This document shows, piece by piece, positions 1-14,122 of a stretch of DNA of 14,122 nt; position 1 is the stretch's first letter; every line of letters begins with the position of its first letter. The position numbers and the translations under genes are program-made. The DNA lies in assembly GCA_040218735.1 (NCBI GenBank), contig JAVJQW010000004.1:1-14122 (forward strand). Direction: 5' to 3'. Source of the DNA: Deltaproteobacteria bacterium (GTDB lineage: Bacteria; Myxococcota; Kuafuiibacteriia; Kuafuiibacteriales; Kuafuiibacteriaceae). The notes under the pieces are model-generated. The model had not been told where the DNA came from. It did no database searches and saw only the letters and a program-made list of their open reading frames with translations.

Positions 1-2
1 CG

Positions 3-1925
3 CTGGGCTTCGCTTCGCTCCTCACAACGCTCCCCGAGGGGACGGACGCGGGCGACCTCTCGGCCTACTTCGTGGCCTCGGTCGAAGTCCCCGCCGAGCT
101 CGCGCGCAGTTTGTCGAACGTCGACGTCACGGCGGAACAGATCCAGCGCCGCTACTTCGAGGTGTTCGGCCGCCGCTCGATCGTCTTTCTCTTCCGCCAG
201 TGGCTCGCGCGCGCCGCCCTGATCTCCACGGTCGCGGCTCTGCTGTTGTGGCTCGCGTTGCGCGCGTACCGCGAAGCGATCTTCGGCGCGCGGCAGCGGC
301 GCGGCGCGATCCTTCGCGACCACGCGGCGCATGAGCGCGAGCGCCGTCGCCGAGGTCGTGCCCTCCATGGACTGGCGAGTGTGGCGCTCGCGGTGCCGCT
401 CGCCTCCGTTGTCTTCGACGCCCCGCCGGCGGAGCTCGCGGTCTACGCGAAGGCCGAGGCGTTCGTCGCAGTTCCCGCGGTGCGGGATCTACTCGCGCCG
501 GAGTGGTCGCCGGACGTGCTCTGGATCGATGGGGCGTTTCGAAGCGGCGAGGCCGCGGTCGTCACGCAGCGTGCGCGGTTCGGTGGACGCTCTGTGCTCC
601 ACCTCGTGGCGGGCTACGTGTTCATCGCGGGGTGGGCCGCGGTCGCGATCGCGCTGGCGCGCCGCCAGTGGCGCGTGCGCTTCGGGGGAGGAGGCGACGG
701 CGGCTACCGCCTCGCCGGGGTCGAGCTCGAGGCCGGCAAGGAGTGCTACCACGTGCTCCTGTGCGGCTCGCCGGGCTCGGGGAAGTCGACCGCCTGCAAG
801 GACCTGCTCGATCAGATCCGTGCGCGCGGCGAGCGAGCGATCGTCTACGACCTCAGCGGCGAGTACCTGCGACTGTACTTCCGACCAGGCCGTGACCGGC
901 TGCTCAGTCCGTCCGACGCGCGGTCCGAGACGTGGTCTCCGTGGGCCGAAGGCGACGACCCGGCGACGTACCTCGCGCTCGCGCGCTCGCTCTTCCCAGG
1001 GGGCGGGCGCGATCCATTCTGGCAGGAAGCCGCCGCCACGCTGTTCGCGGCGGCGCTCGAAAAGCTCGCCGCTGACGGCTCGAACCAGCGCCTCTACTTC
1101 GCGCTCACGCAGGGCAGCATCGAAGACCTCCGCGAGCTCCTCGCGGACACGGACGCCGCGCGCTTTCTCGACCCGAACGGCTCAGCGATGCCGGCCTCGG
1201 TGATCGCCACGGTCGCGAGCGGACTCAAGGGCTGGCGCCAGCTCGTCGACCCCGTAACCCCGTCGTCGGCGTTTTCGATCCGACGCTTCATTCGAGGGGA
1301 GGGCGAGGCCGACGATGCGTGGCTCTTCCTGTCGACGACGGAAGCGGACCGCATCGCGATGAAGCCGCTCCTGTCGCTGTGGGCGGACGTCGCGGCGACC
1401 GCGCTGCTCTCACTGCCCGAGACGCACGCGAGTCGCATCTGGGCGGTCTTTGACGAGGTCGCGAGTCTGCAGCGGCTCCCGGCGTTGCCCGGCCTGCTCG
1501 AGCGCGGACGCAAGCACGGCGCGGCGGTGCTGCTCGGCCTTCAGGCCATCCCGCAGCTGCGCGAAGCGTACGGCCGCGACCTCGCCGCAGCGATCGCGGC
1601 GCAGCCGCAGACGTGGCTCGTGCTTCGCTCCGTCGAGCCGGACACCGCGAAGTGGTTGGAGTCGGCCCTCGGTACGGTCGAGGTCGAGGAGGCGCACACG
1701 TCGTTGTCGATGGGCGTCGATGCGATGCGCGACGGCGTCTCGTTTCAGCAGCACGTGACGCACCGGCCGCTCGTGCTGGCCTCGGAGATCACGACCCTGC
1801 CGGACCTCACCGGCTACCTGAAGCTGCCCGGCGCGCCGGACTTGTGGCGGGTCGCGTACGGCATCCGCGAACGCGAAGACATCGCCGCGCCGTTCGTGCC
1901 GCGCGCACGAAGGAGGCCGACGTGA
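3..1925 (+). CDS. traD: Type IV coupling protein (TraD/TrwB family), 5'-truncated by the window edge
   Basis: The frame is open from position 3 (LGFASLLTT...), so the GTG at 72 is probably not the start. N-terminal TM segments are followed by Walker A GSPGSGKS (765-788), RAIVYDLSGEY, DARSETWSPW, DPFWQEAA, Walker B IWAVFDEVASL, GRKHGAAVLLGLQAIPQLREAYG and LVLASEITTLPDLTGYLKLPG. It lies upstream of a MOBF relaxase. Confidence 0.95.
   Translation: MGFASLLTTLPEGTDAGDLSAYFVASVEVPAELARSLSNVDVTAEQIQRRYFEVFGRRSIVFLFRQWLARAALISTVAALLLWLALRAYREAIFGARQRRGAILRDHAAHERERRRRGRALHGLASVALAVPLASVVFDAPPAELAVYAKAEAFVAVPAVRDLLAPEWSPDVLWIDGAFRSGEAAVVTQRARFGGRSVLHLVAGYVFIAGWAAVAIALARRQWRVRFGGGGDGGYRLAGVELEAGKECYHVLLCGSPGSGKSTACKDLLDQIRARGERAIVYDLSGEYLRLYFRPGRDRLLSPSDARSETWSPWAEGDDPATYLALARSLFPGGGRDPFWQEAAATLFAAALEKLAADGSNQRLYFALTQGSIEDLRELLADTDAARFLDPNGSAMPASVIATVASGLKGWRQLVDPVTPSSAFSIRRFIRGEGEADDAWLFLSTTEADRIAMKPLLSLWADVAATALLSLPETHASRIWAVFDEVASLQRLPALPGLLERGRKHGAAVLLGLQAIPQLREAYGRDLAAAIAAQPQTWLVLRSVEPDTAKWLESALGTVEVEEAHTSLSMGVDAMRDGVSFQQHVTHRPLVLASEITTLPDLTGYLKLPGAPDLWRVAYGIREREDIAAPFVPRARRRPT
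1911..1916 (+). promoter_or_regulatory. Shine-Dalgarno AGGAGG for the methyltransferase
   Basis: AGGAGG lies 5 nt before the GTG at 1922, which overlaps the traD stop (GTGA). Confidence 0.75.
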
Positions 1926-2764
1926 ACGCCGCGCCGTTCGTGAAGTGGGCCGGCGGCAAGCGTCGCCTGTTGCCGCAGCTGCTCGCGCGTCTGCCTCGAC
2001 GGATGACGACGTACTTCGAACCGTTCGTCGGCGGTGGCGCCGTGTTCTTTGCGCTCGCGAACGAAGGTCGCTTCGAGCGCGCCGTGCTCGGTGACGAAAA
2101 CGCCGACCTCATCGAGGTCTACCGCGTCGTGCGCGATGATCCGGACGCGCTGATGCGCGCGTTGAAGCCGATGCAGAAGCACGTCCGCAACAAGGACTAC
2201 TTCAACCGCGTGCGCGCCTCGTCGCCGCGGCTCCCAGTGCGCCGCGCAGCGCGCTTCATCTTCTTGAACAAGACCTGCTTCAACGGCCTGTACCGCGTGA
2301 ATAAGGCCGGCCACTTCAACGTGCCGTTCGGTCGCTACAAGACGCCGCCGCAGTTGTTCGACCCGGAGGCGCTTCACGATGCTTCGCGCGCTCTGCAGAA
2401 CGTCGAGCTCGTCGTCGGTGACTTCGCCACGACACTCGAAGCCGCCGCGCGCGGTGACGCCGTCTACCTCGACCCGCCGTACGCGCCGCGCTCCGAGACT
2501 TCGCGCTTCACGTCGTACACGACGGGCGGCTTCGGCGCGCACGACCACGAGCGCCTCGCGGACGCGTTCGCGATGCTAAAGCGCCGTCGCGTTCGCGCGG
2601 TGCTCTCCAACGCGAGCACGCCGTTCACGCGCGCGTTGTTCGAGGCGCATGAGGTCGAAGCGTTCCAAGTTGGCCGAACGATCAGTGCGGCGGCGAAGCG
2701 CCGCGCACCGGTCGACGAGCTGATCGTCACGCACCGCAGTCGACGAAGGAGGCGCGCGTCATGA
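1922..2764 (+). CDS. dam: Orphan Dam-family (D12 class) N6-adenine DNA methyltransferase, 280 aa
   Basis: Motifs PFVKWAGGKRRL, motif I YFEPFVGGGAVFF, target-recognition hairpin FNGLYRVNKAGHFNVPFGRY, catalytic motif IV VYLDPPY and AVLSN. The true start is taken as GTG 1922 (RBS and GTGA overlap), not 1613 as in the ORF track. Confidence 0.93.
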   Translation: MNAAPFVKWAGGKRRLLPQLLARLPRRMTTYFEPFVGGGAVFFALANEGRFERAVLGDENADLIEVYRVVRDDPDALMRALKPMQKHVRNKDYFNRVRASSPRLPVRRAARFIFLNKTCFNGLYRVNKAGHFNVPFGRYKTPPQLFDPEALHDASRALQNVELVVGDFATTLEAAARGDAVYLDPPYAPRSETSRFTSYTTGGFGAHDHERLADAFAMLKRRRVRAVLSNASTPFTRALFEAHEVEAFQVGRTISAAAKRRAPVDELIVTHRSRRRRRAS

Positions 2765-5439
2765 TCTCCATCTCGAACCTGAAGAGCGCCGCGCAAGCCA
2801 AGTCGTACTACGAGGAAGGCGACTACTACCGCGACGGCGCCGAGCAGACGCCGAACCGTTGGTGGGGGGAGGGCGCTCGTCGCCTGGGCCTCGAAGGCGA
2901 CTTCGATCAGCAAGCGTTCGCTGATGCGCTCGCTGGCAAGCTCCCCAACGGCGTCGAGATGCCGAGCGGTCACGCGGGTGATCGTCTCCCCGGGATCGAT
3001 GTGACGTTCTCGCCGCCGAAGAGCGTGAGCCTTCAGCTCCTCGTCGCCGGCGACGAACGCATCCGCACTGCGCACGACCAGGCAGTCGAGGCGGGGCTTC
3101 GCTACTTCGAGACGAACTTCGCGCAGGCGCGCCTTACGCGCGACGGCGTCACCGAGTCCGAGCGCACCGCGAACCTCGCCGTCGCGCGTGTGCAGCACGA
3201 GGTCTCGCGCGAGCTCGACCCGCAGCTGCACACGCACTGCGTGATCCTCAACGTGACCCAACGCTCCGACGGGGCGTGGCGCGCCCTCGACAACCGAGGC
3301 CTGTACGACGGCCGCGCGGCAGCGGACGCGATCTATCGCGTGGAGCTGTCGTCGCGCCTACGCGCGCTTGGCTACGACGTCACGCGCACGAACAGCCTCG
3401 GACACTTCGAGATCGCGGGCTATGCGCCCGAGCACGTCGAGCATTTCTCGAAGCGCCGCGCGCAAATCGAAGAGGCGATGCAGCAACGGGGCGAGGCCGG
3501 CGCGCGTGCGGCCGAGCGCGCGAACCTGATGACGCGCGCTTCGAAGAGGAAGATGCACCCCGAGGACCTGCACGCGATGTGGGCGCGTGAGGCGCGTGCG
3601 CTCGAGATGGCGTCCCCACCCATTCGGGAAGTCGCCCCGCGCGATGGCGTGGATGAGCTCGCGAACGCGGAGCGCGCCGTCGAGCACGCGCTACAGCACC
3701 TCACCGAACGCTCGACCGTCATCGCCGAACGCGACCTGAAGAAGCACGCGCTGCAGCTGGGCGTAGGTCGCCTCGACGACTCGGCGAGTGTCTTCGCCGC
3801 GATCGAAGCGATGAAGCAGGACGGACGCCTCCTCGGCGCCACGCCTGCGATCAAGAAGGACGGCGACCTCGATCGCTACTTCACCACGCCGAAGGCGCTC
3901 GCCACCGAGCGCGACCTCGTCGACCTGGTCGAGGGCGGCCGCCAGACCGTCGCACCGATCGTGTCGCCCGAGATTGTCGATGCGCAGACCGCCGCACGCG
4001 GTCTGACGGAAGGGCAGGGCGATGCGGTGAAGCTCGCCCTCACCACACAAGATCGCGTGACCGGCGTGCAGGGCTATGCGGGCACCGGAAAGACCTTCGC
4101 TTTGAAGACCTTCCGCGAGCTCGCGGAAGGTCAGGGCTTCGAAGTCCTCGGCGCGGCCCCCTCCGCGAACGCGGCGCACCTCCTCGAGGAGGACGCCGGC
4201 ATCGAGAGCCGCACGCTCGCGCAGCTCCTCATCGACGTGAACCGCGAGGACCCGACCCCGGACCGCAAGCAGGTCTGGGTCGTCGACGAGGTCTCGATGA
4301 TGGGCAACGACGATGCCCGCCGTCTTCTTCGCGCCGCCGAGCGCCACGGGGCGCGCGTCGTCCTCGTCGGCGACGAGGCGCAGCTGCCGTCCATCGCCGC
4401 GGGCCAGGCCTTCCGGCTCCTGAAGCGGCGGGGGCTGACGCACGCCACGATGCAGGAGGTGCTTCGCCAGGAGGAGGGCGTCCTCCGCGAAGCCGTCTAC
4501 GACACGATCCGTCGCAACGAGGCCGAGTCGCTCGACAAGCTCGCCGGCCGCGTCGTCTCGATCGGCGCGCGGACCGACCGCCTGCAGGCCGTTGCCGATG
4601 CCTTCCTGAACCGACCCGAGGCGCGCGACGACACCATCGTCCTCACCCCTTCGAACAAGGACCGCATCGAGCTCAACGAACGCATCCGCCAGGGCCTGCG
4701 TCGCGACGGCGTCCTCGTCGGCGACGAGCAGCGCGCTGAGGTCTTCGTCTCGCGCGGCTTCACAGACGCACAGACCCGCGAGTCCGCCTACTACGATGTC
4801 GGCGACGTCGTGCGCTTCGGTCGGGACTACAAGCGCCTGTCCGTTCGATCGGGCGACACGCTTCGGGTGGTCTCGACCGACCTCCCGAAGAACGAGGTCC
4901 TCCTCGAAGACGCCGCCGGCGGACGTGTCACATGGCAACCGCATCGTCACGCGAAGGTCGAGGTGTACCGCGCCGAGGAGCGGCGCCTCGCCGTCGGCGA
5001 TCGCATCCGGTGGACGCGCAATGACAAGACGTTCGGTCGGCGCAACGGCGCGCTTGCGACCGTCGTCGCACTCTCGGAGGATGGCCGCGTTGCGGCGGTC
5101 GACGTCGCGTCGAAGAACGGCCCACCCGAACGTCAGATGCTGAACCTCGAAACCCAACGGCACTGGGACCACGCTTGGGCGGTCACCGCCCACGGCGCAC
5201 AAGGGCAGACGCGCGGACGCGCGCTCGTGCACATCGACACCGCCGAGAAGAACCTCGTCGGCTACGAGAACTGGTACGTCGCCATCTCCCGGGCGAAGCG
5301 GGAGCTGGAGGTGTTCACGGACGACGTGGACCGCCTCCCCAACGTCATTCAACGACCGATGCAACAAGAGAGCGCGCTCGAAGGGCGCGCTCGTCACTTC
5401 GCTGGGCGTGAACGTATGCGCCTCCCGGAGGCACCATGA
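2761..5439 (+). CDS. trwC: MOBF conjugative relaxase-helicase (TrwC/TraI family), 892 aa
   Basis: Catalytic tyrosines SYYEEGDYY, GIDVTFSPPKSVS, HUH motif HEVSRELDPQLHTH and FSKRRAQIE. The RecD-like helicase has GYAGTGKT, VVDEVSM, LVGDEAQL, TAHGAQGQT and YVAISRAK. ATGA overlap with dam and AGGAGG upstream. Confidence 0.97.
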   Translation: MISISNLKSAAQAKSYYEEGDYYRDGAEQTPNRWWGEGARRLGLEGDFDQQAFADALAGKLPNGVEMPSGHAGDRLPGIDVTFSPPKSVSLQLLVAGDERIRTAHDQAVEAGLRYFETNFAQARLTRDGVTESERTANLAVARVQHEVSRELDPQLHTHCVILNVTQRSDGAWRALDNRGLYDGRAAADAIYRVELSSRLRALGYDVTRTNSLGHFEIAGYAPEHVEHFSKRRAQIEEAMQQRGEAGARAAERANLMTRASKRKMHPEDLHAMWAREARALEMASPPIREVAPRDGVDELANAERAVEHALQHLTERSTVIAERDLKKHALQLGVGRLDDSASVFAAIEAMKQDGRLLGATPAIKKDGDLDRYFTTPKALATERDLVDLVEGGRQTVAPIVSPEIVDAQTAARGLTEGQGDAVKLALTTQDRVTGVQGYAGTGKTFALKTFRELAEGQGFEVLGAAPSANAAHLLEEDAGIESRTLAQLLIDVNREDPTPDRKQVWVVDEVSMMGNDDARRLLRAAERHGARVVLVGDEAQLPSIAAGQAFRLLKRRGLTHATMQEVLRQEEGVLREAVYDTIRRNEAESLDKLAGRVVSIGARTDRLQAVADAFLNRPEARDDTIVLTPSNKDRIELNERIRQGLRRDGVLVGDEQRAEVFVSRGFTDAQTRESAYYDVGDVVRFGRDYKRLSVRSGDTLRVVSTDLPKNEVLLEDAAGGRVTWQPHRHAKVEVYRAEERRLAVGDRIRWTRNDKTFGRRNGALATVVALSEDGRVAAVDVASKNGPPERQMLNLETQRHWDHAWAVTAHGAQGQTRGRALVHIDTAEKNLVGYENWYVAISRAKRELEVFTDDVDRLPNVIQRPMQQESALEGRARHFAGRERMRLPEAP

Positions 5440-7115
5440 GGCACGCGATGCGTTGGCAGAGCCTCTTCTTCGCGCTCGTCGTCACGACGGCGTGCGAGCC
5501 ACTTCGTTACCCGCTCGACGAGCCAGACGGCGGTGAGCGTGATGCTTCGATTCGTGATGCTAGTGCCGGCGACGCGCGTGCGTCGGACGCCGGCCAGACC
5601 GATGCGGGCACTCGCGACGCGGGCGAACAACGCGATGCCGGAGAGCTGCGTGATGGCGGCGAGGCGCCCGACGCGGGAGCGCGAGACGCTGGTCCCGCTG
5701 TCATGCACACGCTCTCGCTGACCATCGCCGGAGGCGGCGCGGGTCGCGTTGTCTCTTCGCCGCCGGGCATCGACTGCCCCGGGACATGCGACGCCGAGTT
5801 CCCCGAAGGTGTGGAGATCCAGCTGCAGGCGAATCCGACCAGGACGTCTCGCGTCGGCGGTTGGTCTCTACCGTGTAACCGCGCCGAGGTGTGCGCGACG
5901 ATGCTCGGCGCGGATGCTTCGGTAGACGTCTTCTTTCAGGTCAAACCGCGTGTCTTCGTGGGCGACTCTCATTCGTGTGCGCTGAACGAGCTCGGTCGGC
6001 TCCGCTGCTGGGGCGAGAACGGCTCAGGGCAGCTTGGCTACGACAATACGACCGACGTTGGGGACGGCGTTGGGCCCTCCGTCCAAGACGTTGGTGAAGT
6101 CGACACCGGCTTCGGCGAGGTCGTCGTCGACGCTGCGCTCGGTCGCTTCCACACTTGCGCGGTCTACAACGATGGCCGCTTGAGGTGCTGGGGAGCCGGC
6201 TTCCGCGGTGCGCTTGGATACAACGATACGGAGAACGTCGGCGACGACCCGAGTCGTCGCATCACCCTCGCGGGTGATGTTCCGGTCGGTGGCCTTGTTG
6301 TGCAGGTCCAAACACACGGCGACGTGACCTGCGCGCTCCTCAGCACCGGGGCCGTCCGCTGCTGGGGAACGAGTGTCACCGGCGCACACGGTCACGGCTC
6401 GACCCCCGCGATAGGCAACGGCACGGGCCCATCGATCATCACCGCGGGCGACTTGACGCTGTCCGGCTCTGCAGTGGTCATCACGCATCGCTGCGCGCTG
6501 CTCGCGACCGGTGCGATCGAGTGTTGGGACGGCGGCATTGATGGCACCGACCAGACAGTTTTCCGCAGCATCAGCGTCGGCGAGCCCGCCCTCGACCTCG
6601 TCTCCGGCGACACCCACGACTGTGCGCTTCTCTCGGGCGGGCGCGTTCGCTGCTGGGGACGCAACGCATGGGGGCAGCTCGGCTACAACAATACGACGAA
6701 CGTGAACGACGGCATCGGCCCCAGCATCCCTGTCGCTGGAGACGTCCCGGTCGGCGAGTTGGTCTCGCAGATCGCGACCGGGCACAGCCACACATGCGCC
6801 ATCCTTGCCTCCGGCGGTCTTCGGTGCTGGGGCGACGGCGGCGACGGTCGGTTGGGCTACGGCAACACGGACAACGTGGGGGATGGCATGGGGCTCGACG
6901 TCGCGATGGCCGGTGTCGTCGCACTCGGTGCAGCCGCGGCGCACGTCGCCCCATCGACCCTGCCGGGGCGACACACGTGCGCAGTCACGGCGGCCGACGA
7001 GGTCTACTGCTGGGGCAACGGCGGCTCTGGGCGTCTTGGGTACGGTAGCGAGGCAAACGTCGGCGACGGCGCTGGGCTGTCGGTGGCCAGTGCCGGTCCC
7101 GTCTTGTCCCTGTAG
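5436..7115 (+). CDS. Lipoprotein with a DAG-rich linker, a divergent InlB B-repeat-like domain and a seven-repeat RCC1/BLIP-II-like beta-propeller
   Basis: Signal peptide with lipobox VTTA-C, then an xxDAG low-complexity linker and the TLSLTIAGGGAGRVVSSPPGIDCPGTC module. Seven units of H(T/S)CA...G.(L/V)RCWG.(N)..GxLG follow. The start is 5436 (ATGA overlap) or 5448. Confidence 0.88.
   Translation: MRHAMRWQSLFFALVVTTACEPLRYPLDEPDGGERDASIRDASAGDARASDAGQTDAGTRDAGEQRDAGELRDGGEAPDAGARDAGPAVMHTLSLTIAGGGAGRVVSSPPGIDCPGTCDAEFPEGVEIQLQANPTRTSRVGGWSLPCNRAEVCATMLGADASVDVFFQVKPRVFVGDSHSCALNELGRLRCWGENGSGQLGYDNTTDVGDGVGPSVQDVGEVDTGFGEVVVDAALGRFHTCAVYNDGRLRCWGAGFRGALGYNDTENVGDDPSRRITLAGDVPVGGLVVQVQTHGDVTCALLSTGAVRCWGTSVTGAHGHGSTPAIGNGTGPSIITAGDLTLSGSAVVITHRCALLATGAIECWDGGIDGTDQTVFRSISVGEPALDLVSGDTHDCALLSGGRVRCWGRNAWGQLGYNNTTNVNDGIGPSIPVAGDVPVGELVSQIATGHSHTCAILASGGLRCWGDGGDGRLGYGNTDNVGDGMGLDVAMAGVVALGAAAAHVAPSTLPGRHTCAVTAADEVYCWGNGGSGRLGYGSEANVGDGAGLSVASAGPVLSL
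5526..5696 (+). repeat. Degenerate coding tandem repeat (xxDAG/DGG penta- and hexapeptides)
   Basis: Encodes DGGERDASIRDASAGDARASDAGQTDAGTRDAGEQRDAGELRDGGEAPDAGARDAGP. Confidence 0.8.
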
Positions 7116-7120
7116 CTCGT

Positions 7121-7936
7121 TCAGTTGACGGTGAGCGCGCCCAACTGCGTCGCGGAGAACACGAGGCCCCCGTTCGATCCTGCACCGTCGAGGTCGCCAT
7201 ACGAAAACGACGCACCGCCATCGAGCGAGTACCGGAATGTATAGGCGTAGCTCCCGGCGCTCGAGATCGTGAACGTCCCTTGGTACTCGTCGTCGTTGCC
7301 GCCGATCATGTTGAAGACGGCCGTCTGCCAGACCCAGGCGGTGGACGCTGTCGGATCGGTTCCAGCCGGCCCGTACCCAATTTCCGCGATGATGCCCGCT
7401 CCCGGACCGGGGGCCTCGGTCACGCCGGCTTCGTAGATCCGACCGTAGACCTCCGGCGTCGTCTCGCCGGCGTTGATCGTGATGGAGGCGGGGAACTGCA
7501 GGTTGCAGAAGTCGCACTCCTCCGGGGCGTCCGTCTCGTTGGCAACGCCTGGCAGCGCGCCGCCATCACGCGCGGAGCCGGCGTCGCGCGGCGGACCCGC
7601 GTCCCGTGCGGGGCCCGCATCGCGAGGGGGGCCAGCGTCTCTCGGCGCTCCGCCGTCTCGGAAGCCTCCGTCTCGGTCCCGACCCGCGTCCTCTACTCCG
7701 CCATCCCTGGTTCCGCCGTCCGCGCTCAGACCTCCGTCTCGGAAGCCGCCGTCGACGAGCTCTCCGGCGTCTCTAGCGCCTCCATCTCTCGACCGAGGTC
7801 CAGCGTCATACGCCGGGCGCGCGTCCAGTGGAACGAAGGTCGAGTCGTCGTTTTCTCCGCCGTCGCCACTACAACCGACAGCGAGTATCGCGACCCAGAG
7901 GGCGCACGAGATCGAATCCACCGCGGGGCGTCGCAT
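7121..7936 (-). CDS. Lipoprotein with an RDAG-repeat linker and a C-terminal beta-sandwich resembling an amylopullulanase-associated module, about 271 aa
   Basis: ATG 7936 gives MRRPAVDSISCALWVAILAVG-C (lipobox LAVG-C). The C-terminus CNLQFP...VYGRIYEAGVT...AEIGYGP...WVW..A.FN...GNDDEY...G.Y.Y.FRYSLDGG..F.YGDLDG resembles, from memory, a non-catalytic module of amylopullulanase/alpha-amylase proteins. The ORF track extends to 8026. Confidence 0.78.
   Translation of the reverse strand: MRRPAVDSISCALWVAILAVGCSGDGGENDDSTFVPLDARPAYDAGPRSRDGGARDAGELVDGGFRDGGLSADGGTRDGGVEDAGRDRDGGFRDGGAPRDAGPPRDAGPARDAGPPRDAGSARDGGALPGVANETDAPEECDFCNLQFPASITINAGETTPEVYGRIYEAGVTEAPGPGAGIIAEIGYGPAGTDPTASTAWVWQTAVFNMIGGNDDEYQGTFTISSAGSYAYTFRYSLDGGASFSYGDLDGAGSNGGLVFSATQLGALTVN
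7560..7810 (-). repeat. Degenerate 15-18-bp coding tandem repeat (RDAGPP/RDAGPA/RDGG)
   Basis: Encodes ...RDGGARDAGELVDGGFRDGGLSADGGTRDGGVEDAGRDRDGGFRDGGAPRDAGPPRDAGPARDAGPPRDAGSARDGG. Third codon positions differ between units. Confidence 0.82.
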
Positions 7937-8040
7937 GGTGGAGGACGCTACTCGCCGGACCTCGGCACGCCAAGCGGCTTGATGCACGTCGTCGTCCGAG
8001 CCCGATTCGTTGTACGCTAGCGCCACTCGGTTCGAAGGCG

Positions 8041-8490
8041 ATGTCCGCAGCAGTCCCCACGAAGTGTTGCTCGAAGTGCGGCAAGGATCTGCCGCTCACC
8101 GACTTCCATCGTCGCCGGCACCACGTGAAGGCCGGCGTGCGCGCAGCGTGTAAGGGCTGCACCGCGAAGGACACAAAGGAGCGTCGCACGGGGCGGATGC
8201 TCTCCGAGGAGGAGAAGCTCAAGAAGATCGTTCGGCAACGAACCAGTCGGGCGATCCTGCGCGGTGAGCTCGTGCCGCAGCCGTGTCGCGACTGCGGTTC
8301 ACACGACGTGCAGGCGCATCATCCGGACTATGTCGCCCCCGATGCGCATCTCCATGTCATTTGGTTGTGCGTCGACGACCACCATCGCGAACACGGAGCC
8401 AGCGATTGGTGTCGTCAGCTCGACATGTTCCCGGGAGCAGAGCGCGAGACAAAGATCGACCCGCGTGTCGTTCACCGTGTCCCGGCCTGA
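8041..8490 (+). CDS. Phage/MGE-type Zn-finger plus HNH-like protein, 149 aa
   Basis: N-terminal CSKC...CKGC zinc finger and C-terminal PCRDCG...QAHHPDY...VIWLCVDDHHREH (HNH-like beta-beta-alpha-Me pattern). ATG 8041 is preferred over 7828, which would overlap the opposite-strand lipoprotein. Confidence 0.8.
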   Translation: MSAAVPTKCCSKCGKDLPLTDFHRRRHHVKAGVRAACKGCTAKDTKERRTGRMLSEEEKLKKIVRQRTSRAILRGELVPQPCRDCGSHDVQAHHPDYVAPDAHLHVIWLCVDDHHREHGASDWCRQLDMFPGAERETKIDPRVVHRVPA

Positions 8491-8827: not shown

Positions 8828-10369
8828 GTGGGCAGACCTGGCGCGTTCCTTCTGGGATTCTTACTCGTCTCCTCGCCCCGTTTCGCAGCCGCGCAAGAGA
8901 AGACAGGCCTTCCCGAGGTCACCTACCTGCCGTCATCACACCAGCTGGCAGGTAGACCGCCGTACGATACGCCGTTCGTCATCGTCGCGAAGTTCCCAAT
9001 GAATGATACCAAGGAGTTCGGCGCCTCGGTCGTGGAGGCCGACGAGAGGTGTCCAACCAGGGCTCAGTTCTCGGCACTGCCGAATCCGGAGTCCCTCAAG
9101 GATCCGAACCTGCGGGAGTTTCGTGTTGTCGCCGGACTCGACGAGGACGGTAAGATTGTCGGCCTCCGACTACGCAAAGCGTATCGGCTTTGCTTCTACT
9201 ACCAAGCCGATCTCACTCCGGCTCGCGCAAGAGCCTTGTCCGCCGACGCTTTGAAGCGCATCAGCGCGATGATCACGGAGTTCAGCAAGACCTCCACGAA
9301 GAATGTTGAGGCCGCCGCCGCGAAGCTCACCGGCCAACTACATGCCGAAGCGAAGAGGCTCATCAGTGCGCTCGACGTCGACGAGACGCACTTGCAGCCC
9401 TTGAAAACACACTTGACGGCGCTGGCCCTTGCGCGGCTGCGCTTGCACGAGACTACGAGGACCCTCAGGAGCCTCCGCGACGCTGCCACAATCGGGGGTG
9501 GGGACAGCAGCATCGCTGGGCTGGCGTCCAAGCCGCCTGCAGGGCCCGATGGTTCGCGGTTCATGCAGGCCCTCTTCGCGATGAATCCGATGAGCGGCGC
9601 CGAAATCTCGCGAATTCTCATCGGCGAATGGGATTTGCCCGCACCGCCGTCGGAGAGCATCTCGTTCACGCCCCGGAAGCGCGGAACAGACGTCTTGTTC
9701 CTTCCCGGGGTTTTGGAGGAGCTGTCACGTTCCAACGTGTCGACGGCGAACGAAATACGCGGCGCGTTGGCGGGTTTCGGGCCGCCGCTCAAGGCCCTAG
9801 GCAGACAGGAAAAGGCGGTCGACGATGCGAAGTTGGCGGTCTCCAAGCGACTCGTGGAGATGTACTCCAGCAAGGACCCCACTCCACGCATCACGTTGTT
9901 CGAGCCCAATCTCAAGCCGAAAGATCGGGCGGATCGAATCAAGTCCTACGTGACAGCTGACATCGGTCTCGCACTCACCGGTTTCGGTGGCGAAGGCGCG
10001 CACGTCGTTCCGACGGTTGCGCTGAACCTCTACTTCCGTCCGATCGATTCCACGCTGGGCCGTTGGAGCGACCACTACGACGGCCTCGACTTCTTCTCGA
10101 TCGTCCTCGGCGTGACAACGTCGCTGCCGGAGGTCGACGGAACGACACTCAAGGGGCTCGTCTCGGACAACGTGACACCCCTAGTCGGGTTGGGCTGGAT
10201 GCCGTTCCACTTTTCGCGCGTGTCAGCCGGATTCGTTCTCGCGAAGGCGGAAGTCGCCTCCGAGATCTCGAAGGCGACGAAGCCTGCGCCTGGATGGTTC
10301 GTGAGGCTCTCGCTCGATGTCGATGTCGCGAAACTTCTCAGCGATGCAAAGAAGGCGCTCATCAACTGA
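8828..10369 (+). CDS. Exported hypothetical protein, 513 aa, with a helical middle region and C-terminal amphipathic beta-strands (possible outer-membrane barrel)
   Basis: Long ORF with Sec-type signal MGRPGAFLLGFLLVSSPRFAAA-QEK. C-terminal alternating strands include ADIGLALTG, TVALNLYF, SIVLGVT, LVGLGW, RVSAGFVL and GWFVRLSLDV. Confidence 0.75.
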   Translation: MGRPGAFLLGFLLVSSPRFAAAQEKTGLPEVTYLPSSHQLAGRPPYDTPFVIVAKFPMNDTKEFGASVVEADERCPTRAQFSALPNPESLKDPNLREFRVVAGLDEDGKIVGLRLRKAYRLCFYYQADLTPARARALSADALKRISAMITEFSKTSTKNVEAAAAKLTGQLHAEAKRLISALDVDETHLQPLKTHLTALALARLRLHETTRTLRSLRDAATIGGGDSSIAGLASKPPAGPDGSRFMQALFAMNPMSGAEISRILIGEWDLPAPPSESISFTPRKRGTDVLFLPGVLEELSRSNVSTANEIRGALAGFGPPLKALGRQEKAVDDAKLAVSKRLVEMYSSKDPTPRITLFEPNLKPKDRADRIKSYVTADIGLALTGFGGEGAHVVPTVALNLYFRPIDSTLGRWSDHYDGLDFFSIVLGVTTSLPEVDGTTLKGLVSDNVTPLVGLGWMPFHFSRVSAGFVLAKAEVASEISKATKPAPGWFVRLSLDVDVAKLLSDAKKALIN

Positions 10370-10377
10370 GGTCAAAC

Positions 10378-10710
10378 ATGGCAACTCGATTCTCGATCAC
10401 ACCGCGGTTCCCCGCGACATCACCACTACGAAGGCCGTTCGAAGTCGAAATAACGATCGTCCATCCGGAATCCGAGGGCCAACCACACATCTTGTTCACG
10501 GGGGAGGGCGTCCACGTGAAGGTGACCAGCCGGGTGCCCACGTCGCTGCCGGCCGGGGCAGGAAAGGTGCAGCACGAGGAGCGAATCACCATGATCCTCT
10601 TCGACGAACCCGCGCGACCGTTCCCGGTCGGCGAAATCGCATGGATCACTTATCGCGTCTTCTTCAAGACGGCACAGGATCGCGGCATCGATGGCATCCA
10701 GATCGTATGA
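10378..10710 (+). CDS. Hypothetical beta-rich protein, 110 aa
   Basis: ATG 8 nt after the previous stop, with GAGG at 10368-10371. Composition is protein-like (MATRFSITPRFP...). The ORF-track extension back to 10063 overlaps the upstream gene. Confidence 0.6.
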   Translation: MATRFSITPRFPATSPLRRPFEVEITIVHPESEGQPHILFTGEGVHVKVTSRVPTSLPAGAGKVQHEERITMILFDEPARPFPVGEIAWITYRVFFKTAQDRGIDGIQIV

Positions 10711-11389
10711 GCTTCCGGCTATCGTCCTCCTTCTTGTGACGAATGCGTGCCTACCGGATGCATCGCTTCGTCACACGGCGGCCATCAGCGCCCCACTGAT
10801 GGTCGAACCTGGTGAAGTCTTCACGATCTCGATGACGCTAACGCCTGTCGAAGGCATCGAGTGCGACCAGGTCGACACCAAAGTCACGTTCAACGCAACG
10901 GCGGGCAAGTTCATCAACGCCGGCGCAGCGAAGGAGGAGGTCGCACTGGAGTCGTGCTCTGCGACAGCGGCCTTCCAGGCCCCCATGGAGGGCAGAATTG
11001 GTGTCTCGGTCGTCGTCGGGAACGAATCGGCCGCGACGATGGTCACCGTCGCCAGCCCGACCCCTCCGGTGGCCCCGCGTCCGGTTCCCGTGGTTACGCT
11101 CGACGTTGGCAATGGCAGCCTCCGTGCCGACGGCGTGGCGACGCTAGAGGTTATCGTGGGCGGGACGCTGGACGACATGCCGATTCCCGCCGGCACGTCG
11201 ATCGTCGTCGGCACCACGGCAGGAACCTTCGTAACGGCGGTGGGCGGTGTCTCGACGACCACACTGAGCGCTGATCAGAACGGTCGCGCGGTGGCGCGGC
11301 TCGTCGCCACCTCGACGGGCTCAGCGCAGATCGGCGCAGAGATGATGGGTGCTGTTGACTTCGCAACAGTGACGCTTTCCCTGGAATAG
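10691..11389 (+). CDS. Lipoprotein with two Ig-like domains (C-terminal one Big_1/invasin-like), 232 aa
   Basis: Lipobox-like IVLLLVTNA-C and a Pro-rich linker (SPTPPVAPRPVP). The pattern LRADGVATLEV...IPAGTSIVVGTTAGTF...ADQNGRAVARL...G.AQI.A is typical of Big_1 domains. It overlaps the upstream ORF by 20 nt. Confidence 0.75.
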   Translation: MASRSYELPAIVLLLVTNACLPDASLRHTAAISAPLMVEPGEVFTISMTLTPVEGIECDQVDTKVTFNATAGKFINAGAAKEEVALESCSATAAFQAPMEGRIGVSVVVGNESAATMVTVASPTPPVAPRPVPVVTLDVGNGSLRADGVATLEVIVGGTLDDMPIPAGTSIVVGTTAGTFVTAVGGVSTTTLSADQNGRAVARLVATSTGSAQIGAEMMGAVDFATVTLSLE

Positions 11390-11401: not shown

Positions 11402-11419
11402 GTATCCGTTCAACGAACC
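11402..11419 (+). repeat. Putative IS66 right terminal inverted repeat GTATCCGTTCAACGAACC
   Basis: It begins with GTA and resembles the GTA..CGT.C...GAAC ends of IS66 elements. It sits immediately 3' of the tnpC fragment. No partner repeat was seen in the window. Confidence 0.65.
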
Positions 11420-11785
11420 GCGTGGTTGACCAGGTCATCTCGCCGTGTTGAGCAGCTGTCGGCGCTGTTTGCACGAGCACCGTCGTCACTCCCCACGAGG
11501 ATCCAGTTCTTCCGGCCAACCGCCTGGCGCCGGAATTCGCGCTCCGAGAGGTTGTTGTCGAGCGGGAGCCGACCGTCGTCGAGGAAGTTCGGCCACTCAT
11601 CTTCGCACCACGCGAAGAAGCGCTCGACGACCGGCTTCGAGTGTTTGCGCCGGCTCCTCTCTCTCTTCTTCCGCGGCGCGGTCGCGATCGAACGCTCGAC
11701 CTTGAAGAGCATTCCAATCATCCCGAGCGCGGCGCGGGCGCGTTCTGGATCGGACCCGAGCGCTTTGAAGAAGTACCGCCGCGCA
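11402..11785 (-). mobile_element. tnpC: Degenerate IS66-family remnant (3' part of the tnpC transposase plus right end)
   Basis: The minus frame reads ARRYFFKALGSDPERARAALGMIGMLFKVER...FFAWC...FLDDGRLPLDNNLSEREFRRQAVGRKNWILVGSDDGARAN, with the IS66 TnpC signatures DNN.SER and GRKNW. There is no 5' part and internal segments are missing. Confidence 0.88.
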
Positions 11786-11792
11786 ATGCCAG

Positions 11793-12005
11793 GTGAAGTC
11801 GCTGACCAAGGCCGGCAAGTTCTCCACGAAGAAGATGCCGCAGGGACTCTTCTGGGAGTCCTACCAGGACTTCGTCTGCGGTGCGGCGCTACGCGCCGCT
11901 CGAGAGCTGCTCGCCGTACTCCCCATCGAGACCGTCCTGTCCAACGTAACGATCTCGATGCTCAACACTGCGACCGGACAGGACCCCAAGCCTTCGGCGT
12001 TGCTC
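11793..12005 (+). pseudogene. Internal fragment of a conserved protein (resembles the C-terminal region of DUF4236-containing proteins)
   Basis: VKSLTKAGKFSTKKMPQGLFWESYQDFVCGAALRAARELLAVLPIETVLSNVTISMLNTATG is well-formed with strong GC3 bias. It starts at the IS66 junction and loses coherence after about 11990. The family call is from memory. Confidence 0.55.
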
Positions 12006-12034
12006 GGCCCGAGGAACCGAGGCACAACCAGATC

Positions 12035-12691
12035 ATGCGTTTCAAGGAACGCTTGGTTGTCCTGCTGGTTCTCCTCGGATTCTCGGCGGCACTGCTCTAC
12101 AGCGCGAATGCGAGCTTCTCGGAGAGCACGATGGATACGTTGGGTCCGGTCCTGCTCTTCGGAACACTGAGTCTATACGCGCTCGTAGTGCAGCCACGGC
12201 TCGAATCTCGGGCGCTCGCTCGCCGACTGAGACCGGTCCTTACTGTCTTCGAACAGGCGGGGCCGATGCACGAGAAGCGTCACGAGACCGCCTACCGCAA
12301 CGCGCTTCTCGGTCAGGTTCTCGCAGGACTCACCGACACGCAGAAGCCAGAATCGCCGCTTCCAACGGGCACGCGGGTTGATGCTTGGTTCGAACACGAC
12401 GGAGACGACTGGTACGTCACGGTCAAGAAGGGCATCGACAATCAGCGGCGACTCACTCTGCAGGGCGAAGTCGAGGACATCCTGCTGCACGCACCCGATC
12501 GCAAACGGGACATGTGGATTGTGATCGTGCTCGGTCTGGATCCGGGGGCCAATCGGAATCCTGAAACCGCCGCACAGCTGACATCTCTCAGACGCTATGC
12601 AGCGCAGCGATCGAGCCAGGTTCTCGAACTCGAATCTAGTCGAAGGCGGTCGATCGAGGTCGTCGAGATAGCCACGAGTTCGGACCCATAG
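12035..12691 (+). CDS. Two-TM membrane protein with a C-terminal degenerate PD-(D/E)xK-like domain, 218 aa
   Basis: ATG 12035, two hydrophobic helices (LVVLLVLLGFSAALLY; LGPVLLFGTLSLYALVV), then HETAYRNAL...E.PLPTGTRVD...WYVTVKK...LQGEVE...IVIVLG. The CDS is well supported; the fold is an inference. Confidence 0.65.
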   Translation: MRFKERLVVLLVLLGFSAALLYSANASFSESTMDTLGPVLLFGTLSLYALVVQPRLESRALARRLRPVLTVFEQAGPMHEKRHETAYRNALLGQVLAGLTDTQKPESPLPTGTRVDAWFEHDGDDWYVTVKKGIDNQRRLTLQGEVEDILLHAPDRKRDMWIVIVLGLDPGANRNPETAAQLTSLRRYAAQRSSQVLELESSRRRSIEVVEIATSSDP

Positions 12692-12706
12692 TTGAGTCCG
12701 TCGGGT

Positions 12707-13582
12707 TCACCAGCTGTAGACGCCGCCCCGTCGCTGAAACCGCTCGAGGTCGAACGAGACGCTCTTCCACGCTGTCGAGACGCCAACGTCCAGGATCGGC
12801 GCCCCGTAGGAGTGGCCGCCGGCGACGTTATCGAAAAACCGCCCTGCGGGGTCCACCATGGCGTACGAGCCTCGCATCGCGTCGTTGTCCTCGACGACAG
12901 GGCTCAAGTCGCGGTGCCTTCGGACAAAGTCGTTCAGCTGCGCCTTCGTCACGAGGAGCGGCTCCACGGTGCCGTCGTTCTGTCCCTTGACCGGGAGGAC
13001 TTGGAATATCTTCCACCGCTCCGGCTTTGCGCGCTGGATGAGCTCGCGGAAGTCCTCTTCCGCGTTCAAGCGGCTGACGACTGTGTTGATCTTGATCCGA
13101 ATGCCCAGGGCACGCGCTTGCTCGATGATTTCGAGGTATCGCTCATCCGGTATCGCGCGACCCCGGATTGCTCGACCGAGAGCGACGTGTGTCTTCGAAC
13201 TAGGGCTGTCGATGCTGAGCGCGAGCCACCCGAGCGAGCCGGCGAGGCGCTGGAGCGCGTCCCGGTCGAGTCGCGTGCCGTTCGACACGAGCATCGTCGT
13301 ACACCCGCTGCCCGCCGCCTCGTCGATGAGTTCTGCGAGCCACGGGCAGAGCGTCGGCTCCCCTCCCACGAAAGTGATCTTGTCGAACTCGGAGGCGAGT
13401 ACCCGCGTGAGCCGGAGCGCCGCCGCCCGGTCGAGGTGCCCGGCTGGCAAGACGTCGCGCCTGACGTCAGCGAACACGGCAAAACAGCCTCGACACCGCA
13501 TGTTGCAGGGCTGCCAGAGGTGGAAGTTGACAGCCGGCGGGAGTGGCCGGCCATTCCGAGAGGTTGAGCTGTCACTTTGCAA
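12707..13582 (-). CDS. vip: Prokaryotic viperin (pVip; RSAD2-like antiviral radical SAM nucleotide dehydratase), 291 aa
   Basis: Motifs VNFHLWQPCNMRCRGCF (N-aromatic-H-x4-Cx3Cx2C-F), KITFVGGEPTL, MLVSNG, LSIDS, KINTVVSRLN, RWKIFQVLPVKGQND, EDNDAMRGSYAMVDPAGRFFDN and terminal FQRRGGVYSW. TTG start with AAGGAGG at 13587-13593. Confidence 0.95.
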   Translation of the reverse strand: MQSDSSTSRNGRPLPPAVNFHLWQPCNMRCRGCFAVFADVRRDVLPAGHLDRAAALRLTRVLASEFDKITFVGGEPTLCPWLAELIDEAAGSGCTTMLVSNGTRLDRDALQRLAGSLGWLALSIDSPSSKTHVALGRAIRGRAIPDERYLEIIEQARALGIRIKINTVVSRLNAEEDFRELIQRAKPERWKIFQVLPVKGQNDGTVEPLLVTKAQLNDFVRRHRDLSPVVEDNDAMRGSYAMVDPAGRFFDNVAGGHSYGAPILDVGVSTAWKSVSFDLERFQRRGGVYSW

Positions 13583-13586
13583 GGGT

Positions 13587-13593
13587 CCTCCTT
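13587..13593 (-). promoter_or_regulatory. Shine-Dalgarno AAGGAGG for viperin
   Basis: Plus-strand CCTCCTT, 4 nt upstream of the TTG start at 13582. Confidence 0.7.
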
Positions 13594-13644
13594 CGAGCAG
13601 CGGGAGAATCTGGGCTGCTCATCGGGGACCACGCGGTCGGCCGT

Positions 13645-14121
13645 TCAGCGTCTCAGGTTTCTTCGAAGTTTTTCGAACGGGTCCGGGGGCCCTTCGCAGA
13701 TCCGTTCGTAGGTCTGGCGCATCCGGGCGGTGACCTCGCGGCACTGGCGGTTGACAGTGCTCCTCGACCCGATGCCCCGCGCCTCCAGCTCGCGCGCGCT
13801 GAATTCGACGCAGAGCAACAGCAGTGAGCGGCTCTTGGGCGCCAAGGCATCGAGGGCCCGCGATACGCATCGTCGGAGCTCTCGGAGCTCCAGCGCTTCG
13901 AGAGGGGACGGCTCGGTATGCCCCAGGCGCACCGCCTCGCGTTTCTCGGCGGCCGCCTGGCGCCGCAGCGCGTCCTTTCCGGCATTCTCGACCGCCCTCC
14001 AGTAGAAACCGCGGACCGCCTCCTCGGACACCGCGGCGCGGCTCCCGAATCCGGCGCAAACGTCGATCGCTTTGTCGACGGCGAGATCTCGTGCGTCGTC
14101 GAACGTAAGCCGCGCTCGGAA
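13645..14121 (-). CDS. ECF-type sigma-70 family factor, 5'-truncated by the window edge
   Basis: The frame is open to the window end. Region-2-like DDARDLAVD...VRGFYWRAVENAGKDALRR is followed by region-4-like LRRCVSRALDALAPKSRSLLLL...SARELEARGIGSRSTVNRQ. The match is divergent. Confidence 0.7.
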   Translation of the reverse strand, partial: FRARLTFDDARDLAVDKAIDVCAGFGSRAAVSEEAVRGFYWRAVENAGKDALRRQAAAEKREAVRLGHTEPSPLEALELRELRRCVSRALDALAPKSRSLLLLCVEFSARELEARGIGSRSTVNRQCREVTARMRQTYERICEGPPDPFEKLRRNLRR

Positions 14122-14122
14122 G

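Follow-up and report, generated by a model that had tools for sequence, protein, structure and literature searches.

Does the viperin gene near the right-hand end of this stretch of DNA act alone, or is it part of a larger unit, and what kind of element carries it? Viperins convert a nucleoside triphosphate (NTP) to its 3'-deoxy-3',4'-didehydro form (ddhNTP), a terminator of viral RNA synthesis, and prokaryotic viperins (pVips) were reportedly first described by Bernheim et al. in 2021, in Nature. They have so far been treated as single-gene or viperin-plus-kinase systems. The stretch analyzed here, referred to as the window, is the whole of the 14,122-bp contig C47 of genome G000 (11.6 Mb, 70 contigs, ~69% GC), and it holds a viperin gene together with conjugation genes. 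As a whole, our results make it quite probable that this pVip is the second gene of a sigma-pVip unit, carried as hot-spot cargo by a plasmid-like conjugative element in a Myxococcota host; in the most likely working model it would be inducible through its sigma-like partner. The pairing is the unexpected part of this explanation; the enzyme and the presence of defence genes on conjugative elements are of already known kinds. The features that make up the pair are the following.

12707..13582, minus strand: pVip coding sequence, 291 aa, TTG start and TGA stop (NF038283, PADLOC, AlphaFold2)
12812..12829, minus strand: beta-8-loop nucleobase pocket, with N252 at mouse Cys314 and H257 at mouse Lys319 (HMMER alignment to 6q2p_A)
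13358..13366, minus strand: S-adenosylmethionine (SAM)-binding GGE motif G73-G74-E75, invariant in alignment A1
13484..13507, minus strand: radical-SAM [4Fe-4S] motif C26-N-M-R-C30-R-G-C33, aligned to mouse viperin CNYKCGFC
13583..13644, minus strand: spacer of 62 nt from the stop of the sigma-like gene to the pVip start
13587..13593, minus strand: Shine-Dalgarno sequence AAGGAGG, 4 nt before the TTG (sequence read)
13645..14122, minus strand: C-terminal 158 aa (sigma2-sigma4-like) of a membrane-anchored protein resembling extracytoplasmic function (ECF) sigma factors, its 5' part beyond the contig end (TIGR02937, hhalign)

The first step is the enzyme. A sequence-only reading of this stretch had described a complete pVip with all hallmark motifs and a strong ribosome-binding site, and our analysis confirmed a genuine, intact and functional-looking prokaryotic viperin. 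The protein scored 290.2 bits (cut-off 180) with the NCBIfam model NF038283, "viperin family antiviral radical SAM protein", and 315.4, 284.1 and 241.1 bits with one pVip-kinase and two pVip models of PADLOC (E 2e-94 to 4e-72), whose prokaryotic viperin entries are PDLC02903-02905. It also matched Pfam Radical_SAM with 73.7 bits, and reached 135 bits with the eukaryotic viperin model TIGR04278, for which the cut-off is 450. Its matches to solved viperins had E values between 1.6e-38 and 4.8e-33. An AlphaFold2 model built on the 26 relatives of alignment A1 (mean predicted local distance difference test score, 86.1) superposed on CTP-bound mouse viperin 6Q2P with a template-modelling score (TM) of 0.89 and a root-mean-square deviation of 1.6 Å, and on nine viperin entries with TM 0.86-0.89; the next radical-SAM folds, MoaA and SkfB, gave TM values of at most 0.63. 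Beyond the Fe-S and GGE motifs, the stretches K164-INTV, R189-WKIF, G238-SYAMVD and C-terminal R284-RGGVYSW aligned in HMMER with KINSV, RWKVF, DSYLILD and KRGGKYVW of 6q2p_A; from the roles of the mouse residues, we take them to hold the triphosphate- and ribose-binding residues. All motif columns were invariant across the 26 relatives. The TTG at 13582-13580, placed 4 nt behind the Shine-Dalgarno sequence, is the first start codon past an in-frame TGA 13 codons upstream, and it is the only usable one because no ATG or GTG was read between that TGA and the TTG, and the next in-frame Met falls within the Fe-S motif. Codon-position GC of the open reading frame (ORF), 0.65/0.48/0.82, is canonical for the genome. 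Two plus-strand ORFs of the same length that overlap the viperin have non-canonical values (0.82/0.49/0.66 and 0.50/0.68/0.76).

The viperin enzyme itself is ordinary, one more member of a well-populated family: of 7,728 candidates from the protein collection search with the window viperin, 2,895 were relatives at E ≤ 0.001. Its closest relative is the genome's own copy on contig C65 (96% identical), the next one beyond the genome's own copies is 65% identical, and the named matches are viperin family antiviral radical SAM proteins of Polyangium, Corallococcus, Pyxidicoccus and Chondromyces. Neighbours, kinases, partners and phylogeny were compared over a set of 80 related viperin loci. In a quick maximum-likelihood tree of 80 rows, from which L041 and L045 were left out for their internal stops, the window and C65 copies share a long branch (0.58) that is sister to L050, a locus of a Myxococcota metagenome-assembled genome (approximate likelihood-ratio test, SH-aLRT, 92), inside a group of viperins from Myxococcota and Gemmatimonadota that has weak support. 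The sequence-only reading had also stated that the product could not be told from the sequence, and we agree. The pocket is of the Asn type, usual among prokaryotic viperins and termed promiscuous, which can make ddhCTP, ddhUTP and/or ddhGTP, whereas the base-selective pockets have Cys/Lys (CTP-selective) or Arg (UTP-selective) (Shomar preprint, section 5). Since the predicted pocket type is compatible with all three ddhNTPs, the product is not assignable from the sequence.

Two observations concern the relatives themselves. In the Actinomycetota loci L057, L062, L099, L063, L067 and L095, the viperin lies beside squalene-hopene-cyclase-like or AIR-synthase-like genes, neighbours that hint at another context or role; L057 reads as a 698-aa ORF with a long N-terminal extension. 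In a genome of the same family as G000, locus L102 (G010:C222:12437-12748) holds a viperin fragment only (residues 11-114, 63-68% identical, one TAA inside), which appears to be a decayed copy.

The second step is the neighbour. The viperin is not a lone gene, and in this respect the earlier description, in which the neighbour is missing, has to be corrected: the gene of the membrane-anchored ECF-sigma-like protein immediately precedes it on the same strand, with 62 nt between the two. A single longer relative of the window fragment was found (P0121, 322 aa, 5'-partial), 93% identical to it and identical to the C65 copy; its sigma part is preceded by hydrophobic segments. The start of contig C31 encodes the first 47 residues of P0121 with 100% identity, and there an ORF beginning with an ATG behind AGGAG (C31:510-1) adds 123 residues with more hydrophobic segments. 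Because P0121 joins C31:510-1, the full partner can be assembled as a protein of ~445 aa consisting of a polytopic membrane domain, a linker and sigma2-sigma4, with hydrophobic segments through about residue 200. The partner's N-terminus being encoded on C31 also fixes the right-hand neighbourhood of the window, namely a 285-aa gene, RadC and RND efflux genes. No sigma-70 promoter was found around the viperin gene (0 in the scan), nor any in the 62-nt spacer, which likewise gave no terminator match; a single terminator-like site, inside the gene, is at chance level. The sigma-like gene and the viperin may be co-transcribed.

The third step is whether this arrangement recurs. A Pfam neighbour scan of 33 high-GC loci of the 80 found ten in which the gene immediately preceding the viperin, on its strand, encodes a protein of 417-472 aa ending in Sigma70_r4_2. 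The ten proteins align over their whole length and have ~5-6 hydrophobic segments in their first ~220 residues, and these full-length viperin-linked membrane-sigma proteins were used to build alignment A2 and the partner profile. Three relatives' partners tested against TIGR02937 reached 46.7-50.4 bits, over the cut-off of 42.9, and in a predicted partner model the N-terminal helices are long, the linker is disordered and the C-terminal part matches solved ECF sigmas at E 7e-5. With a relative's partner as query, the ESM Atlas gave no clusters other than those of ordinary short ECF sigmas. Applied to every ORF of the 80 loci, the profile added L032, L039 and L033 (diverged), each directly upstream of the viperin, so that the partner has this position in 13/80 loci, all from Myxococcota and from three separate clusters of the viperin tree. 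The window partner has the same A2-type architecture, an N-terminal polytopic membrane part and a C-terminal sigma part, directly upstream of the pVip and on its strand.

We also surveyed the phylum with an even sample of 401 genomes, using the cut-off of the viperin model and a partner profile threshold of E ≤ 1e-15. The viperin passed in 19 genomes, 18 besides G000, and the partner profile matched 16 genomes, in 14 of them as a full-length protein and in two as a sigma domain only. In 14/14 genomes the full-length partner shares the viperin's strand and lies upstream of it at a distance of 130-235 bp; within the sample it was never seen apart from a viperin. Between the two genes, a bipartite motif, GTCAC(A)-N16-18-(G/C)TGGA(G/C), lies 14 nt past the sigma stop in 11 of 12 loci and is kept between partners that are only 24% identical; it was not found upstream of the relatives' sigma genes, and its loose pattern matches GC-rich DNA often. 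The adjacency of sigma-like gene and pVip is conserved. PADLOC gave no match for the sigma-like protein or for the DNMK kinase of the relatives, and a literature search of limited extent found no published report of a link between viperins and sigma factors.

Several results weigh against the explanation that we favor. First, the window fragment scored 25.4 bits with TIGR02937, under the cut-off of 42.9, and is truncated by the contig end; ~360 bp of its gene are missing from the assembly, and the N-terminal part is known for the C65-type copy only. Second, the likeness between the window partner and the A2 family lies in architecture, length, position and strand. In hhalign the window fragment matched A2 with a probability of 46% (E 2e-4) and P0121 with 16%, BLASTP matched region 2 of L032 at E 1e-5 within a set of six sequences and the sister locus L050 at E 0.57, and the A2 model found no match in G000 at E 1e-15. 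In a multiple alignment, the window partner and relatives are colinear and have in common an Asp, a Cys that follows region 2.1, and an Arg; common descent with the A2 family is no more than plausible. Third, all 14 co-occurrences come from one family (f9) and are thus non-independent. Fourth, the 62-nt spacer of the window lacks the relatives' bipartite motif. In addition, the catalysis and the antiviral effect of the window viperin are what we infer from homology, and genome G000 is probably metagenome-derived, its host assignment and copy number resting on binning. Finally, 4/18 other viperin genomes in the sample lack the partner, so that it is not required for pVip function.

The last of these points leads to the alternative that survives best, although we consider it unlikely: the pVip would be an autonomous, constitutive single-gene defence, and the sigma-like gene a neighbour with an unrelated regulon or a decaying passenger. 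Such autonomy would agree with the protection that, according to the Shomar preprint, 26 bacterial viperins confer when expressed alone in Escherichia coli. It would also explain why the partner is missing not only from those four genomes but also from most of the 80 related loci, why the window spacer has no recognisable sigma-dependent motif, and why the sequence of the window-type partner has so little in common with those of the others. A neighbour of no consequence, however, would hardly be expected to behave as this one does: (i) the full-length membrane-sigma family occurs only beside pVips, with the constant strand and spacing found in 14/14 genomes, (ii) three separate clusters of the pVip tree, the window's among them, contain the pairing, (iii) the pair is retained on two diverged variants of the element, and (iv) the intergenic motif has outlasted the divergence of the partners around it.

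We therefore return to the sigma-pVip unit and to how it might work. By analogy, we infer that the sigma-like protein has a regulatory role over the viperin. Its N-terminal multi-pass domain would keep the sigma domain inactive at the membrane until a cue, possibly phage attack at the envelope, frees it; the freed sigma would then drive viperin transcription and make the viperin inducible. Once produced, the enzyme would reductively cleave SAM with its [4Fe-4S] cluster, and the resulting radical would take the 4' hydrogen of an NTP, with loss of water, to give a ddhNTP that ends viral RNA chains. Release of a sigma factor from the membrane is proposed because of the DdvS-DdvA precedent, an ECF sigma and a transmembrane anti-sigma that in Myxococcus xanthus control phage resistance and a CBASS/type III-B CRISPR island (PMC11506125). 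A bolder version, which we put forward only tentatively since we regard it as possible rather than probable, is that Myxococcota viperins are the output of a one-polypeptide device in which a membrane-tethered sigma senses an envelope cue, for instance the adsorption of a phage or its injection, is released and turns on the viperin (plus the kinase, where present), a module here captured by a conjugative plasmid. If true, this would be a bacterial counterpart of the infection-induced viperin of animals, spread by a conjugative plasmid.

The fourth step concerns the kinase. The sequence-only reading had seen none, and we found no nucleotide-kinase domain in the 12 window ORFs with Pfam, NCBIfam and PADLOC. 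A profile built from nine viperin-adjacent DNMK-type kinases likewise had no match in the window, in C65 or in the 66,708 ORFs of the whole genome, and the upstream side, open at the contig end, holds the sigma-like gene rather than a kinase. The window viperin is a kinase-less pVip, even though its highest PADLOC score came from the kinase-fusion model. In the set of 80 related loci, the DNMK-type profile found 13, with ten separate genes directly downstream of the viperin and three fusions; one further locus is a cytidylate-kinase fusion. In the Myxococcaceae loci L023, L025, L026, L027, L030, L031, L034 and L037, the membrane-anchored sigma, the viperin and a DNMK-type kinase form a three-gene operon in which the kinase start overlaps the viperin stop by 4 nt and a conserved hairpin (CCCG...CGGG) lies just 5' of the viperin ribosome-binding site.

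The fifth step is the carrier. The sequence-only reading had placed the viperin about 7 kb from a relaxase and linked it to a conjugative module. Both statements were borne out: 7.3 kb separate the end of the relaxase (5439) from the viperin stop, a coupling protein and a MOBF relaxase are encoded on the same contig, and the C65 variant has the same combination of viperin and relaxase on one contig, with different cargo between. The remaining features of the window are the following.

3..1925, plus strand: type IV coupling protein (T4CP), TraD/TrwB-like (PF10412, 360 bits); its 5' end continues on C3/C7 (end overlaps)
1934..2764, plus strand: Dam-family N6-adenine DNA methyltransferase (TIGR00571, 274.6 bits vs 114.85; PADLOC MTase_II/orphan MTase)
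2761..5439, plus strand: MOBF relaxase-helicase (TrwC/TraI-like), 892 aa (NF041492 MobF, 288.5 bits vs 100; PF08751 TrwC, 274 bits)
5436..7115, plus strand: RCC1-repeat lipoprotein, backbone, in all three variants
7121..8026, minus strand: secreted PRDAG-repeat protein, backbone, in all three variants
7828..8490, plus strand: Cys/His-rich ORF, backbone, in all three variants
8828..11389, plus strand: variant-specific cargo absent from the C65 and C22 variants, with a 513-aa secreted protein, a ~110-aa ORF (10378-10710) and a 232-aa lipoprotein-like ORF
11410..11990, no strand assigned: IS66-family transposase debris (to the C63 IS66, 73% aa and 92% nt identity; to C61, 93% nt identity)
12023..12691, plus strand: convergent neighbour of ~222 aa, two N-terminal hydrophobic segments, start uncertain; its stop is 15 nt from the pVip stop

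The assembly contains ~20 small contigs of lower GC that form families of two or three members, 85-96% identical. The left end of the window overlaps contigs C3 and C7; the right end has no overlap partner except the identical end of C65. Linked contigs, overlapping or homologous, encode RepA (PF10134), ParA, ParB, a TrbC/VirB2 pilin, a TraC/VirB4-like ATPase and a TrbI/VirB10-like protein, and the element contigs also carry ArdC, SSB, RadC, SprT and RND efflux genes. The part of the type IV secretion system (T4SS) gene set that was recognised among these (TrbC, TraC/VirB4-like and TrbI-like) lies on contigs that overlap or parallel the left end of the window. GC of the element is 0.665, compared with ~0.69 in the large contigs. 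Because its sibling contigs carry RepA/ParAB and T4SS genes, the element is plasmid-like and probably conjugative and self-transmissible, with three diverged variants, two of them with viperin. The earlier description of the viperin as mobilisable antiviral cargo stands as far as cargo of a conjugative element is concerned; the word "mobilisable" by itself is too narrow, since T4SS and RepA/ParAB genes were found on linked contigs.

The position of the viperin inside this element was addressed by comparing the three variants. In C47, ~4 kb of variant-specific cargo and IS66 debris precede the viperin, in C65 two small ORFs only, and in the third variant, C22, the same backbone on both sides encloses other unassignable genes. 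The backbone to the left of the module comprises TrwC, the RCC1 gene and the 7828 ORF, and that to the right the 285-aa gene, RadC and the RND efflux cluster (C31). With backbone genes flanking the module on both sides, the viperin is unlikely to lie outside the element, past its edge, and sits instead in a variable hot spot within it. The element-boundary check suggested in the sequence-only reading was thus answered in part, through backbone on both sides of the viperin; no tRNA was found on the six element contigs, and the right end gave no new overlap. At E 0.1, the window, C65 and three related loci were all free of Rfam matches. Viperin and relaxase are both accessory: among 40 sampled relatives, the former was present in two genomes and the latter in three, all at low identity.

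Several observations on the element stand by themselves. (i) Contigs C3, C7, C30, C2, C34, C51, C10 and C62 (L005-L009, L018, L019), together with window positions 1-5439, represent three variants with distinct RepA/ParA(/ParB) modules, and these contigs also hold a Ser/Thr kinase and a sigma-54 activator. (ii) Window positions 902-3261 (C-terminal part of TraD, Dam, N-terminal part of the relaxase) have no second copy in the assembly, though both sides have one, and the summed k-mer depth there in run X1 is ~83-127, compared with ~30 over the C47-specific cargo; this is probably a collapsed region common to the variants. No partner endonuclease of the Dam-family methyltransferase was seen in the window. 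(iii) In each of the three variants, the gene next after the relaxase is that of the RCC1-repeat lipoprotein (window 5436-7115; L003:3608-6157; L004:7435-9117), which in the window overlaps the relaxase stop by 4 nt; the C65 version has 849 aa and adds InlB B-repeat domains. (iv) The Cys/His-rich ORF 7828-8490, with CxxC pairs and HH motifs and no family match, is 88-93% conserved in the three variants and forms the left edge of the variable cargo region. (v) The IS66 fragments sit between the variant-specific cargo and the viperin; the C63 copy of IS66 is intact, and C61 is a contig of 489 kb. (vi) In C22 (L004, 453-4785), a Schlafen/AlbA_2-domain protein and ORFs of 397, 208 and 137 aa without matches replace the sigma-viperin pair. 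(vii) Other small contigs (L015 = C36, L012 = C44, L010 = C69) carry as cargo an RHS-repeat protein accompanied by an Imm51 immunity gene and a tyrosine recombinase, a protein resembling AbiZ (PADLOC E 3e-14), a weak LmuA-like match, ArdC anti-restriction and SSB genes. The cargo ORFs at 8828..11389 had no family matches in Pfam, NCBIfam or PADLOC, the hot-spot genes of C22, C65 and C31 had none in PADLOC, and the ~222-aa convergent neighbour had neither a family match nor a homologue beside related pVips.

The sixth step is the host. A Myxococcota host had been proposed from the sequence, and this assignment found support, as phylum-level relatives of G000 carry the Myxococcaceae-type loci. 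The competing possibility, which seems rather improbable to us, is that the contig is foreign to the binned Myxococcota genome and that the three variants come from different organisms or strains in a mixed sample. The best public matches to the window stretch are indeed mixed-culture and aquaculture metagenome runs, estimated contamination of G000 is 4.65%, and the GC of the contig is under that of the chromosome contigs. Depths in run X1 are also unequal, ~24-30 for the C47-specific parts vs ~41-56 for the other variants, although these k-mer depths from Logan contigs are not copy numbers. From the metagenome origin and the unequal depths, the "three copies" may be several plasmids or several strains. 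A 1,890-bp contig in a run of another study is identical to window positions 12118-14007, which places the exact C47 variant in more than one sample. RNA runs were absent from the listed holders of the stretch. Lower GC, however, is usual for plasmids, and other evidence ties the contig to Myxococcota and to this genome: among the loci examined, the nearest pVips and the membrane-sigma pairing occur only in Myxococcota, one backbone protein is 62% identical to a paralogue encoded on contig C8 (339 kb), and the IS66 debris is 93% identical to the 489-kb contig C61. Least probable of all is that the modified nucleotide serves a purpose other than phage defence (competition among elements or bacteria, predation, or a step towards a nucleoside natural product), since, although actinomycete relatives lie beside AIR-synthase-like and squalene-hopene-cyclase-like rather than defence genes, myxobacteria are prolific producers of secondary metabolites and a conjugative element could gain from harming rivals, the window protein passes the equivalog model for antiviral viperins, its closest solved or characterised relatives are ddhNTP synthases, and no biosynthetic genes stand beside either viperin copy.

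If the sigma-like partner is indeed regulatory, expression of a bacterial viperin would be regulated and possibly triggered by infection, and the sigma-viperin pair would offer a tractable sensor-to-effector model for phage sensing at the envelope. The element has an interest of its own: defence genes are common on conjugative elements, and plasmid-like conjugative replicons have, to our knowledge, rarely been described in myxobacteria, so that three related ones with RepA/ParAB, T4SS genes and a variable cargo hot spot would be of value for biology and as genetic tools.

Compared with known systems, the window protein resembles other pVips in its whole-length family match, its radical-SAM and GGE motifs, its C-terminal NTP-binding tail, its fold and the Asn at the mouse Cys314 position, which most prokaryotic viperins share. 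It differs from them in its nearest identity of 65%, its long branch, the sigma-like gene upstream and its conjugative carrier. With animal and fungal viperins (RSAD2; PDB 6Q2P, 5VSL, 7N7H, 7N7I, 9DFN) it shares 30-33% identity across the entire catalytic domain and TM 0.86-0.89, and by inference the chemistry; unlike them, it has no N-terminal amphipathic or endoplasmic reticulum anchor, and an Asn/His pocket replaces the CTP-selective Cys/Lys or UTP-selective Arg. Compared with pVip-kinase operons and fusions and with the viperin-CMPK2 pair, its tree neighbours carry a DNMK-type kinase downstream (10 loci) or fused (3), whereas both copies in this genome have no adjacent kinase and the gene downstream in the window is convergent and unrelated. 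The element is like MOBF conjugative plasmids in its MobF relaxase-helicase, T4CP, T4SS pilin, VirB4- and VirB10-like proteins, RepA-ParAB, ArdC and SSB, and is set apart by its myxobacterium-like host and its three diverged variants.

The closest parallels for the pair as a regulated unit are found among sigma factors. DdvS-DdvA is alike in being a myxobacterial ECF-type sigma beside defence genes, held at the membrane and with a proposed response to phage; there, sigma and anchor are separate proteins, and the system has a zinc anti-sigma domain as well as a periplasmic TPR-CHAT sensor (PMC11506125); in the window pair, by contrast, the partner is one polypeptide, a polytopic N-terminal membrane domain with a sigma domain, and the output is a viperin. 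Extended ECF sigmas are also alike, having an ECF core fused to an extra, presumably controlling domain. In the 2021 ECF reclassification, within the sections available to us, N-terminal extensions are rarer and generally short, and the transmembrane extension of ECF263 is C-terminal (PMC7826278). On this basis the architecture of the viperin partner is unusual, its extension being N-terminal, ~290 aa long and provided with ~5-6 hydrophobic segments.

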